From Ostrea edulis (taxonomy: Eukaryota): DNA of 64,000 nt. The stretch is taken from the NCBI RefSeq assembly GCF_947568905.1, contig NC_079165.1, positions 83,700,001 to 83,764,000 on the forward strand. The letters run 5' to 3'. The notes beneath the pieces are model-generated. The model was not told the origin of the DNA and did not search any database. It saw only the letters and a program-made list of their open reading frames with translations. A program made the translations under genes and the position numbers. The stretch's first letter is position 1. Each line of letters begins with the position of its first letter. Shown here piece by piece: positions 1-64,000 of this stretch.

Positions 1-64
1 TTTAACAGACTTACCCCCCTTTTATTTCCTGTAATAGCTACACCTCTCACCAGATTAATCACTT
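1..64. other. Empty (uninserted) TTAA target site of the 9.3-kb element
   Basis: 1-54 matches the left flank of the element (about 12565-12625: CCCCCTTTTATTTCCTGTAATAGCTACA.CTCTCA..CAGA). It is followed by a single TTAA (55-58) and then directly by the right-flank sequence TCACTTGTATT seen at 21884. Confidence 0.85.
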
Positions 65-143
65 GTATTCGTTCAGAAGATGACATTGTTTAATGATTGA
101 CCAATGCAGTTTTTTTTTGTATTTAGATGCATTGTTTGTTGAA

Positions 144-600
144 AGGTGAAGATAACAAACAGTGATCAATTTCATAACTCCTATAAGCAATACAAAATAG
201 ATAGTCGGGCAAACACGGACCCCTGGACACACCAGAGGTAGGATAAGATGCCTAGGAGGCGTAAGCACCATCTGTTGACCGGTCACACTCACCGTGATTC
301 CTATCGTTAAAACGACCATAGAATTTGCGAAAAGCTGATTTTTTAACGAGACTGTACCATCAACTTGTTTGTCAGTAGCTTGCCTCGATTTAAAAACTGA
401 CCATACGCAGAACAAGCCCTTGTGTATCGAATCAGTTGAGAGATATAAACACCATATGCAGGTGATAATGGAATATTGCTACATATATATGGTAAGTTGA
501 CGATGGAGAAGCTAAAAGCATCCCGTTTGCATAAAGTTGAGTTGTTAGTTTGCCGTTAATATCTACTTTCAATAAGATATGTATCAATCTATCTTAGCTT
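144..600 (-). mobile_element. 5'-truncated copy of the same Penelope-like element (RT C-terminus plus 3' UTR)
   Basis: Starts GAAAGGTGAAGATAAC..., the reverse complement of the common 3' end; copies at ~21964 and ~44025. Confidence 0.75.
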
Positions 601-1095
601 TCTGCTTCGATAAATCAGCATGCACATTCGATAATTCAATACAATAGTGTCTTTCGGAAACGTACTTTATTACAAAATACAACAGTCATACAGACATGAG
701 TGATTTTTTTTCTAGTTTTCCTATATATTTGACTAAATATATCCAAATTGGATCCGACACTACTAGGTAACGTGTAATATCAGTTTGAAAAGCTACCCTA
801 TCCTTTTTAGCTGTCACAATGGATATAAGTTCTTTTACAAAGTCTTCTAAAAGAGGTGCAATATATCAATTGAAACGAATTTTTATACATTGAGGAATAC
901 ATCATCATTATATTATAATAACTGTACAAAAAGGAAAACATTTGAAAATGCCAAAATAAGAGTTTCAATCATTTGGTCAAAGTTTCGGGATGTGGATAAA
1001 TCTTCGTCGTTTCCAATTCTACAAAACAAAACGTCACAGATGATAACGACAAAACATGTTTAATAATCTATGTTTGACACTTTATCTGCGAAGCC

Positions 1096-1176
1096 ATCTT
1101 CGAAAGCCAAGTGTCCGATTCGCTTTCTCTCATCTCCCCTGAGAGTAAGCGAATCGGACACTTGGCTTGTGAAGAT
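1096..1176. other. Long near-perfect hairpin (22-bp perfect arm plus extensions)
   Basis: 1104-1125 is the exact reverse complement of 1147-1168; 1127-1132 pairs with 1140-1145; 7-nt loop. Copies at 22970-23046 and 45031-45106. Confidence 0.85.
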
Positions 1177-1579
1177 GCTATATCGCATGCACTACACATC
1201 TAACCAAATTTGAATCATTTCTTTTCATTCCTATCATTTTTGATTTACAAAAAACTATGGATGAAGATAACGTTTATAATGTAATCTCATCATACTTTTA
1301 TTTTGGACTCGGCATTCGTCTACTGATCACGATTCTCGTCCTTTGAAGTCATAGCCGCCATTTTTGTTTTGTTCGTGAAATGCTATGACTACAAATAGAC
1401 AGAGTAATTGGAATTTCATTTAAAGATGTCTCCTCCATGTATGTTCTGCAAGGCAATCTCAAATATATCGACCATTGCAAGACACTGATCGTGTATAATG
1501 AACCCAAGAGTTCGAATTGTCTTCTAGAAAACAGGAAGGATTTTCCTAGTCAGGGAATAGAATGAGCACAAAATAAAGA

Positions 1580-60623: not shown

Positions 60624-62205
60624 CATAGTTGTTAGTTATCTCCACACATACCCAGACACTACATCAGCTATTTCTTTTTAAAAAATGGTCTAATTCGGGG
60701 GTTTAGATTGCAGTATTCGGGTCCTCGACTGCCAATGTTTTGTAGTAATCTTGTATCAGCCACTGAGCACACAGAGGTGTTGCAAGAAAAAATCCATAAA
60801 GAGGTGCTTGAAGGACGAATGGCTGGTCCTTTTGACCACCCCCCATTGCATAATTTACACGTTTCCCCAATAGGTGTCGTTCCGAAGGCAGATGGCGGTT
60901 GGCGCATGATCACACATCTTTCTTACCCACCGTCAAATAGTATAAACCACCATATCGACCCGGTTCACAGATCTGTTAAGTATACCTCATTTGATACTGT
61001 AGTCCAAACCATTAGTCTTCTGGGCAAGGGGACGTTCATTGCAAAAGTTGATATCAAAAGTGCGTTCAGGTTAATTCGGGTTCATCCAGCTGATTTCGAA
61101 CTCTTGGGCTTGCATATGAATGGCAGTTTTTATATTGATAAGTGTTTACCTTTTGGTTGCGCTATTTCATGCAAAATTTTTGAAATGTTCTCATCATTTT
61201 TAGAGTGGTTGGTCATAGCTAAATCAGGGATTGAAACGGTTCACCATTACTTGGATGATTTTATTTTTGCAGGCAGTGCGCATACAAGCCATTGTCATGT
61301 CCTTATGCATACATTTCAGTCTATGTGTGTCGAGATGGGAATACCTTTGAACCAGGATAAATCTGTTCAACCCACTACCTGTTTAATATTTCTCGGTCTG
61401 GAGATTGATACTATCAAAATGCAAATTAGAATACCCCGAGAAAAGGTTGACGAAGTCATGAATCTCCTACTCTTCTGGGTCTCGAAAAATAAAATTAAGT
61501 TATCTACCCTTCAGAGCCTGGTGGGCAAGTTAAATTTTTTTTGGCAAAGCAATACTCGGTAGCAGGGCATTCAACCGTAGATTTTACAACGCCACGATTG
61601 GTCCCACTAAGCCATCGCATCATATCAGAATCAATCACTCAATGCGTGAAGACATGAATACATGGATAAGTTTTTTGAGGGGATTCAATGGTGTAGTGTA
61701 TTTCCCAGAGAGGGAGTGGGCCACCCACAACACTTTACAACTGTTCACGGACAGTGCAGGTGGATCTAGTTTAGGTTGCGGGTGTTATTTTCAGGGTCAG
61801 TGGACCTACCTTCAATGGCCACATGATTGGACCATTACTTCAATCTTGAAAGACATCACATTTTTAGAACTTGTGCCCATTGTGCTAGCCATATCAGTAT
61901 GGGGCAGTAGGTTGCAAAACAAAAAGATACTATTTCATGTGGACAATATGGCCTTAGTACACATTCTTAACAAACAGTCATCTAAGTCACATCGGGTTAT
62001 GTCGTTTGTTAGGCCACTTATCCTTCAAACATTGCACTTCAATATTCAGTTCAAAGCCCAGCATATCCCTGGGAAAACAAATAAAATTGCTGATTCTATA
62101 TCTCGCAAGCAGTGGGACTTGTTCAGGAACCTAGCACCTACAGCCGATCACAACCCTCAGCTAATCCCAGCTTCGTTCCAGAGGCTGCTTTGTCAAGTGA
62201 AATAA
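60376..62205 (+). pseudogene. pol: RT/RNase H, copy 3 (two frameshifts)
   Basis: Breaks at the T5A6 tract (~60675-60685) and at the T8 run (~61535-61542). Confidence 0.9.
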
Positions 62206-63073
62206 GCCGCCTTTTACACTCATCCTTGTCAGCAAACACCAACCAAGCATATATGGTGGGTATTCAGGCATTCAACCATTTCCGTAGCATTCAGGGACTA
62301 CCTAACACAAGCCCACCACTGGATGCTCACATCAATACATTTATTGCACATTTATCCATACACGGTTACAAGCAATCCACAGCTAAAGCATACATCTCTG
62401 CCATTAGTTTTTATTGCAAACTCCACTGGAATGCGGATCCGACTAAGCATTTTATAGTGCAGAAATTGTTGCAGGGTATGAAGCGCACAAATTCAATATC
62501 GGATGCCCGTTTACCTATCACATTGGGCATTTTGGAACTAATCATAAATAAACTACAGGTGGTATGCTCTAGCATGTATGAGACCCTTCTTTTTAAAGCA
62601 TCATTCTCACTAGCTTTTAATGCCTTGCTTAGGATAGGGGAATTTGCTTTGTCAAAGGGCAATTCTGTGGATCGGGTTTTACATACTGGGGACATTTCCC
62701 TGCACACTAACTATTTAACAATTCACATTAGATATTCGAAAACTGACCAATTAGGTAGGGCACCACATTGACAGTACATAAGATGACCGGAACTACTTGT
62801 CCAATACAGGCCATGCACGATTATATGGAGGTTAGGGCACCGAAAGCGGGGCCATTATTTTGTCATTACTCTGGTCAGCCTCTTACTCGTTACCAGTTTA
62901 CCTCAGTTTTGTCACGCTCGCTTAATTTAGCGGGGATAGACAGTAGGCACTTCAAATCCCACTCGTTTCGCATTGGTGCAGCAACTACACTCGCTCAACA
63001 AGGCATGTCAGCCGAAGTTATTCAAGCGGCAGGTCGATGGAGATCTGTTGCATATCAGTCATATATTCGCTAA
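62112..63073 (+). pseudogene. Tyrosine recombinase, copy 3 (shared frameshift)
   Basis: ORFs 62112-62771 and 62768-63073. Confidence 0.9.
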
Positions 63074-63088
63074 TCTCTTAACGTTCAT

Positions 63089-63718
63089 ATGCCTTGGGTA
63101 TTTGCATGCCTAACATTCACCAAGTTCTTCATAGGTCCAATTAAAGTGTGGATTGTTGGATCCTCCATTATTAAGAGGGCAGCAGTGGCTGCCAGATCCA
63201 GGACAGGGGGACCAAACCTTAACGTTCCAAACACGACCATTTGGTGGCAAGGTTACGGGGGTATGAATTTATACGAGTTGGTGCCGAAACTTAAAATATT
63301 ACAGCAGGTGCAAGATATTCCTGATCTTATCATTGTTCATTGTGGGGCAAACAACCTTGGCCGTACCAACCTGTGGTCACTGGTCAGACTTCTTCAGTCT
63401 GCTATACTAGAAATAACCAAACGTTTTCCTAGTGTGAAATTAGTGTGGTCTTCACTGCTACCTAGATTTAGTTGGCATTATTCTACACAGATACAGGCAA
63501 TGGAAAACGCCAGAGCAAGAATTAACAGGGAGGGTATTAGGCTAATAGCTTCAAAGGGTGGGGCGTTCATCAAACACACACAATTTGAAGCTAAGCCCGT
63601 TCATCTGTATCATTCTGATGGTGTGCATCTGTCACAGCTCGGGAATGACTTATTTCTCAATAATCTACAAGGTACCCTTGAAACCTTCATTGGTGGCAGG
63701 GTTAATGCGTTTCCTTAG
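63089..63718 (+). CDS. SGNH hydrolase, copy 3, intact (one R>H change)
   Basis: 209 aa; SWRYS becomes SWHYS; catalytic blocks unchanged. Confidence 0.85.
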   Translation: MPWVFACLTFTKFFIGPIKVWIVGSSIIKRAAVAARSRTGGPNLNVPNTTIWWQGYGGMNLYELVPKLKILQQVQDIPDLIIVHCGANNLGRTNLWSLVRLLQSAILEITKRFPSVKLVWSSLLPRFSWHYSTQIQAMENARARINREGIRLIASKGGAFIKHTQFEAKPVHLYHSDGVHLSQLGNDLFLNNLQGTLETFIGGRVNAFP

Positions 63719-64000
63719 ACCTGTTTCGATTTGCGGCAATCTGGTTAGCGGTGACCATTTGAGTTGGCGTACTGCCGCCGTCACCACGGTTCTGGGCACT
63801 CCCTTTGTGGCGGTTGCAGTCCCACAAACGCTTCTGTTTCACGGGCGTGTGTGGCACGTGCAAGTGGCGTTTCGGCGCACCCCAACTCAAATGGAGGAGT
63901 GCACCCAATATTCTGCAGCTTCATGCCATGAACTTGAAAATTTGCAGTATTGATTAATGATTGAATTGCTGATTGAATGATGGAATTGTTGACATTGAAT

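Follow-up and report, generated by a model that had tools for sequence, protein, structure and literature searches.

Tandem arrays whose multi-kilobase units combine several kinds of repeats have been described as composite arrays in the human telomere-to-telomere assembly, where they are attributed to unequal crossing-over (10.1101/2021.07.12.451456). In the coral Acropora, tandem duplications ascribed to non-allelic homologous recombination increase transposon numbers without transposition (PMC12314368), and nested, shuffled repeat loci have been reported in oysters (PMC12628747). Here, we examine a 64,000-nucleotide stretch of the Ostrea edulis (flat oyster) genome (assembly GCF_947568905.1, contig NC_079165.1, forward-strand positions 83,700,001 to 83,764,000; hereafter ‘the window’, with positions counted from its first letter), which holds a head-to-tail array of ~22-kb units, each made of a ~12.6-kb ‘base’ and a ~9.3-kb transposon ‘insert’. 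The locus is a tandem segmental duplication or composite macrosatellite; it belongs to an already known class of large tandem repeats and fits the description of the human composite arrays; it differs from them in being from a bivalve, in presenting three copies, and in possessing a transposon site, seen both empty and filled, that dates the latest amplification. With the Acropora loci it shares the gain of transposons by tandem duplication in a polymorphic marine invertebrate, whereas the coral regions hold expanding gene families, of which none was detected here. What is new is that the inserts are evenly similar (0.45–0.56% divergence) while the bases are patchworks (0.2–7%) in which different pairs of copies are the most similar in different parts of the unit. 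We found no prior description of the array in a literature search, which misses most subscription journals. We regard it as probable that the tandem segmental duplication is real, was expanded by homologous unequal exchange, and has since exchanged tracts between versions of its base.

Self-BLAST of the window recovers three copies in head-to-tail order, with starts at 55, 21880, and 43942; the window end truncates the last of them. The two complete units are 21,825 and 22,062 bp long, and each joins a ~12.6-kb base to an insert of 9.25–9.37 kb. The bases, all on the plus strand, lie at 55..12625 (12,571 bp), 21880..34564 (12,685 bp), and 43942..56826 (12,885 bp); the first is apparently non-coding and rich in transposon relics, and of the three versions it diverges most over its left 8.7 kb. 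The corresponding inserts occupy 12630..21879 (9,250 bp), 34569..43941 (9,373 bp), and 56831..64000 (truncated), with the second carrying the same nested retroelement and miniature inverted-repeat transposable element (MITE; 36716-37768) as the first, and the third a MITE at 58966-59934. A single unbroken alignment of 25,951 columns (95.5% identity) matches 5499-30888 to 27198-53080 and spans a unit junction; 96% identity to the third copy is found for 32584-41819 and 10645-19769, and 55-5365 matches both other copies at only 92.6–92.8%. Within the window, ~64% of the whole unit is recognizably repetitive (~38% for the base), and every unit combines at least three repeat types among a Kolobok-type element, a Ngaro-like element, a MITE, Naiad pieces, and a minisatellite; with two complete units and one partial unit of multi-kilobase length in head-to-tail tandem, this is the organization of a composite repeat. 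Macrosatellites are long arrays whose copy number varies among individuals, and the window displays three copies. The first-pass annotation of this DNA, made from its letters alone, had proposed at least three head-to-tail ~22-kb copies, which the alignments bear out. It had also described a two-tier array of 12.6-kb base units and 9.3-kb insertions amplified as 22-kb units: the split and the sizes are correct, while an insert-free 12.6-kb unit is visible as 58 bp only, from which an array of such units would be an extrapolation.

Those 58 bp (1..58, plus strand) show the target of the insert in its unoccupied form. They comprise the end of a base, one TTAA (55-58), and then directly the start of the next base; positions 15-49 match 12579-12613 at 97%, and the whole segment aligns to the left flank of the insert with a 7-bp gap before running, after the single TTAA, into the sequence that follows the insert in the filled copies. 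Since the left flank is thus joined to the post-insert sequence across one TTAA, the window opens on an empty insertion site. In both complete inserts (2/2), a TTAA duplication flanks the two sides (in copy 1, at 12626-12629 and 21880-21883), and the insert ends are perfect 22-bp inverted repeats beginning with AG and ending with CT. These continue into degenerate inverted arms (in copy 1, ~12630-13774 and ~20573-21879) with (GA)n and (CT)n at their inner ends; the arms are ~75% alike (697 of 932 aligned columns identical), with an alignment score of 406 as against 104 for the best of 20 shuffles. A TTAA duplication together with 5'-RR..YY-3' termini is the signature of Kolobok elements, which are common in bivalves (PMC9587614). 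On these two features, we classify the insert as a putative non-autonomous Kolobok-type element, which may be either a single ancient element with long arms or a pair of related ones working as a composite. It shares both features with the Kolobok and KolobokP elements described there and differs from them in its lack of a detected transposase or His-Me nuclease; we rejected an identity with KolobokP, as the arms of the insert are inverted, whereas the long terminal repeats of KolobokP are direct. No gene for a DDD/E transposase or nuclease was found among the window frames scanned with Pfam, as expected if the insert is non-autonomous, and the 22-bp end motif had no match in the four supplementary files of the KolobokP paper.

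Nested within the insert is a truncated tyrosine-recombinase retrotransposon (approximately 14250..20030, plus strand). From left to right, it displays a gag-like frame reaching to 16391 (by eye only, with no Pfam match); a reverse transcriptase (RT) at 16090-17331 (RVT_1, E = 2e-15); an RNase H at 17303-17974, where the matches to RNase H families are weak (E = 0.007–0.02); a recombinase split over two frames, 17863-18540 and 18528-18842 (Phage_int_SAM_1, 6e-5; Phage_integrase, 3e-13); and an SGNH hydrolase at 18843-19487 (Lipase_GDSL_2, 1e-7), all on the plus strand. The succession of RT/RNase H, tyrosine recombinase, and SGNH hydrolase, with no methyltransferase detected, is that of Ngaro elements, and the layout from the gag-like frame onward is the one described for Ngaro-like elements (PMC9210276). 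The split direct repeats (A1..B1-A2-B2) of the latter were not found in the present copy, which is truncated and frameshifted; the search for these and any other terminal repeats of the retroelement gave, in copy 1, only microsatellite-like matches of 14–17 bp, and we therefore name the element Ngaro-like and truncated. Kolobok and Ngaro types are both on record in bivalves (PMC10294476), and the RT frame has 473 relatives, with all of the species-named ones among the best 120 of these coming from bivalves (Pinctada, Pecten, Saccostrea, Mya, Mercenaria, and Mytilus).

All three copies of this retroelement carry the same lesions, namely the MITE (14692..15702 in copy 1) and two frameshifts. The MITE lies in the gag-like region; it has a TA target duplication, inverted ends that are perfect over ~42 bp, and an interior of palindromic 21-bp repeats. 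Named bivalve homologs change frame at a common RT/RNase H position and at a common recombinase position in 3/3 copies. The RT/RNase H frameshift also appears in a separately deposited relative that is 99% identical (P0001); in another relative, P0004 (97%), the frame stays open at this point. As P0001 carries the same break, an assembly error is unlikely; judging from these comparisons, the break is probably real and older than the amplification. The earlier proposal that the retroelement was already broken when it was copied is thus upheld by the lesions common to the copies. Its companion, that the amplification was not transposition, gains support from the same shared breakage and from a unit that is without element ends of its own.

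The evidence on how the units multiplied comes from a comparison of divergence among the copies, computed after removing near-gap columns and six mini- or microsatellite stretches. The three inserts differ pairwise by 0.45, 0.49, and 0.56% over 5,724 columns, and the individual copies have 11, 15, and 17 private changes in a star-like pattern. For the bases, the pairwise values are 3.21, 3.87, and 1.94% over 10,914 columns, with a range of 0.2 to 7% along the unit; even for copies 2 and 3, the insert and base divergences are distinct at p=4e-14. Differences are evenly spread in the insert (variance/mean 0.8–1.6, p>=0.1) and clumped in the base (3.8–6.2, p<1e-7). The changes in the insert are rich in transitions (31:12); decay of CpG sites was rejected as the source of its single-nucleotide polymorphisms (SNPs), accounting for 4 of 43 only. 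Moreover, the odd copy out switches along the base: private changes of copy 1 and copy 3 stand at 71:12 in 2000-4499 and at 10:42 in 10441-12000 (p=8e-15). The labels of the odd copy are clustered throughout the base (214 changes of label vs 277 expected, with none of 10,000 permutations as low) and show no clustering in the insert (p=0.10). Such switching of sister pairs calls for recombination or conversion between versions, or else for a switch of haplotype during assembly.

Individual tracts bring out the patchwork. Copies 2 and 3 are 0.23% apart at 2013-3752 and 0.6% at 6528-8404, and copies 1 and 2 are 0.74% apart at 8765-10170; these tracts far from the insert, at 0.2–0.7%, have the same depth as the inserts themselves and look like remnants of whole-unit duplication. 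By contrast, the first 2 kb of copy 1 is 6.7–6.9% from both other copies with many indels, and at 4500-6699 all three copies are ~3% apart. Within a region of ~0.7% divergence lies a tract private to copy 1 (10171-10440), beside gaps of 9 and 49 bp, the 10171-10395 part of which is 8.9% divergent; this tract resembles the outcome of conversion by a distant version. The homogeneous zone as a whole comprises the insert and ~0.9 kb to its left (from 11720) and ends at the right edge of the insert, with the first difference 9 bp out (16 differences in 2,110 columns of the insert's right part as against 39 in 1,811 immediately beyond it, p=3e-4). A stop at this edge is what would be expected if the donors of the divergent tracts had no insert.

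Taken together, evenly similar inserts on patchwork bases favor homologous unequal exchange and conversion. The first-pass annotation had named unequal crossing-over and circle or rolling-circle reinsertion as joint candidates; the former fits, and the latter fails as the sole mechanism, the base being over-dispersed where even divergence is predicted. We consider rolling-circle amplification of a 22-kb circle, or a Helitron-type tandemization, acting alone to be highly improbable. The star-like phylogeny of the inserts fits a near-simultaneous origin, and Helitron rolling-circle arrays have been described, as have Helitron-linked complex loci in oysters (PMC12628747); yet this mechanism alone cannot yield switching sister pairs or an over-dispersed base, and the frames scanned held no Rep/helicase match, Helitron termini not having been searched for. 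Rolling-circle copying as a first step, followed by conversion, is possible.

We would reconstruct the history as follows. The TTAA site that stands empty at the start of the window is filled, in the units, by a 9.25-kb non-autonomous Kolobok-type element, which already contained the dead Ngaro-like retrotransposon, the MITE, and a Naiad fragment before amplification. The insert was then amplified together with the 12.6 kb of DNA around it into three or more head-to-tail units, and the ~0.5% between inserts marks this step as recent. Misaligned recombination between repeated base DNA, by unequal crossing-over or break-induced repair, probably drove it; as the substrate, we favor an earlier duplication of the 12.6-kb segment, although a single empty paralog would suffice. 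The base would have gone on trading tracts with versions of itself that were more diverged and probably lacked the insert, be they older 12.6-kb paralogs, empty alleles, or both, and the insert, having no such partner, would have stayed homogeneous; the mosaic itself is directly visible in the alignments.

Several points weigh against this reconstruction. The visible empty-site DNA could be a recombined empty allele instead of part of an array, and the original duplication breakpoint was not found in the window. The 2–4% tracts could all be allelic given the SNP density of oysters, ~1 per 40 bp in non-coding DNA (PMC6058216). Our two-state segmentation of divergence used rates that we chose (0.5% and 4%), 6 of 10 short indels in the insert, being located in homopolymers, could reflect sequencing errors, and the mechanism is read from the window alone.

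One alternative is a one-tier history, in which the element inserted into a locus present once, 22-kb units made up the array from the outset, and both the empty head and the divergent tracts derive from crossovers and conversions with ordinary empty alleles of a highly polymorphic population. This is possible, though clearly the less likely account, and as it shares its class of exchange mechanism with the history preferred above, the confidence placed in the two overlaps. The insert is young and empty alleles plausibly still segregate, most divergent tracts (2–4%) lie near the quoted SNP density (PMC6058216), and a single empty site is seen; on the other hand, the divergence and many indels of the first 2 kb of copy 1 and the 8.9% of 10171-10395 are deep for alleles, and the three-way split at 4500-6699 requires several donors. 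An unlikely alternative invokes a homing-like spread, in which the insert was copied into the empty TTAA sites of a prior, gene-free 12.6-kb array by gap repair of double-strand breaks, possibly started by transposase cuts at the insert ends and taking little flank along. Empty units would then have been turned into filled ones, rewriting the period of the array from 12.6 to 22 kb. The confinement of the homogeneous zone to the insert and ~0.9 kb on its left, with almost nothing on its right, speaks for this; nevertheless, the tracts of low divergence at a distance from the insert are more simply explained as what is left of a duplication of whole units, a donor without the insert can in any case convert no further than the insert edge, and no transposase or nuclease gene was seen in the scanned window frames.

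Haplotype switching during assembly can create a patchwork. A run of 150 Ns (54691..54840) lies within copy 3, and bivalves are highly heterozygous (PMC6058216), both of which would suit an array that is an artefact of wrongly joined haplotypes or contigs. We nonetheless think this very unlikely: three distinct versions of the insert are impossible as two alleles of one copy; both unit junctions are homologous and without gaps; and the N run falls where copies 1 and 2 have (AT)n, away from any unit junction, with the tract private to copy 3 running on across it (37 differences in 2,021 columns on the left and 41 in 1,059 on the right, vs 1 in 889 beyond). Further, the changes in the insert have the transition bias noted above, and a 21-bp minisatellite in the base (6739..7530, 28485-29370, and 50555-51564) differs in length among the units by whole repeats (36.7, 42.7, and 48.7 copies). 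The tandem array is real unless contigs are chimeric, and purely false concatenation is ruled out; the copy number and some homopolymer indels could be wrong.

A different kind of alternative is that the base holds small host exons, either of a tandem gene family or of an internal exon duplication, with the transposons hitch-hiking on their expansion. In its favor, ~62% of the base shows no sign of being repetitive within the window, and hitch-hiking of transposons on tandem gene expansion has been described in corals (PMC12314368). Against it, none of 150 stop-to-stop frames (141 of 157 base frames plus 9 insert frames) passed the Pfam cut-off, the five matches below it having E values of 0.013–0.036, and none was to a histone; further Pfam scans of 14 and 18 frames scored the retroelement alone. 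The base frames show no clear excess of synonymous changes, the two best-looking ones having 1 synonymous to 8 nonsynonymous, with one of them frameshifted in two copies. Searches for homologs of 11043-11258 and 11497-11718 (both minus strand) found none, which is weak evidence, and that for 2472-2684 (minus strand) returned only two weak, multi-stretch matches (29% and 39%). Splice-site scans, run with uncalibrated weights and without a positive control, yielded 2 candidates at a strict threshold and 9 open AG..GT candidates at a relaxed one, the latter counting for a hidden gene; the candidates form no chain. The window has no Rfam match at the gathering score and no tRNA, including no ribosomal, 5S, or small nuclear RNA. 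We accordingly hold hidden host exons to be improbable; the claim of the first-pass annotation that the units contain no recognizable host gene held in every test run, with the tests being weak for short or lineage-specific exons. One exon-like segment with good AG and GT ends (6589-6635, minus strand) has no partner exons that we could find and is too short for a homolog search.

No function is evident for the array, and neutral turnover is the simplest reading. Its interest lies in the insert serving as an internal clock (~0.5%) by which to gauge exchange in the adjoining base (up to 7%), whereby a single window separates unequal exchange from rolling-circle copying. More generally, dead transposons in such loci gain copies without moving, which would inflate apparent peaks of recent activity, and the loci themselves produce structural variation and assembly trouble in bivalves. 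Its importance is otherwise modest, as no new class of element or gene is revealed.

Among the remaining repeats are pieces of Naiad, a family of Penelope-like elements. One 3'-end insertion (20816..21136) lies in the right arm of the insert with a 7-bp duplication at 20809 and 21137, and a young 3'-end fragment private to copy 1 (5364..5498, minus strand) is a 135-bp indel with 97.8% identity to the 20817-21135 piece. The family was assigned on a stretch of 19 bases that exactly matches a consensus 3' end in the Naiad supplement (PMC8557442); one of three motifs matched, once, with flanking letters alike by eye. The 12.6-kb base holds 19 matches to this 3' end, in both orientations, vs one in the 9.25-kb insert. 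The pieces are short and degenerate, with no Pfam or homolog match to a GIY-YIG plus RT frame. As in the described Naiad elements, whose 5'-truncated 3' ends are very abundant in bivalves (PMC8557442), only 3' ends are present; the locus differs in having short relics alone, very densely packed. Any same-orientation pair of them in the base (59-12625) could have seeded the first duplication.

The MITE in the retroelement differs in length among the copies by 42 and 84 bp. Its palindromic 21-bp repeats mimic microRNA hairpins and are a possible source of small RNAs; 26 weak microRNA-like Rfam matches were rejected, all of them lying in this MITE and below the cut-offs. A diverged MITE-related fragment (20364-20560) sits between the retroelement and the (CT)n of the right arm. 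Another short element, apparently truncated at its right end, lies at 13799-14100, and its start resembles what we take to be the end of a hAT-type MITE. In the base, a small inverted-repeat element (10463-10591) stands beside (AT)n, with a related motif at 10069-10111. Finally, 58 bp kept in copy 3 at a Naiad fragment (53081-53138) are missing from copies 1 and 2, a shared deletion within a tract where that pair is closest.

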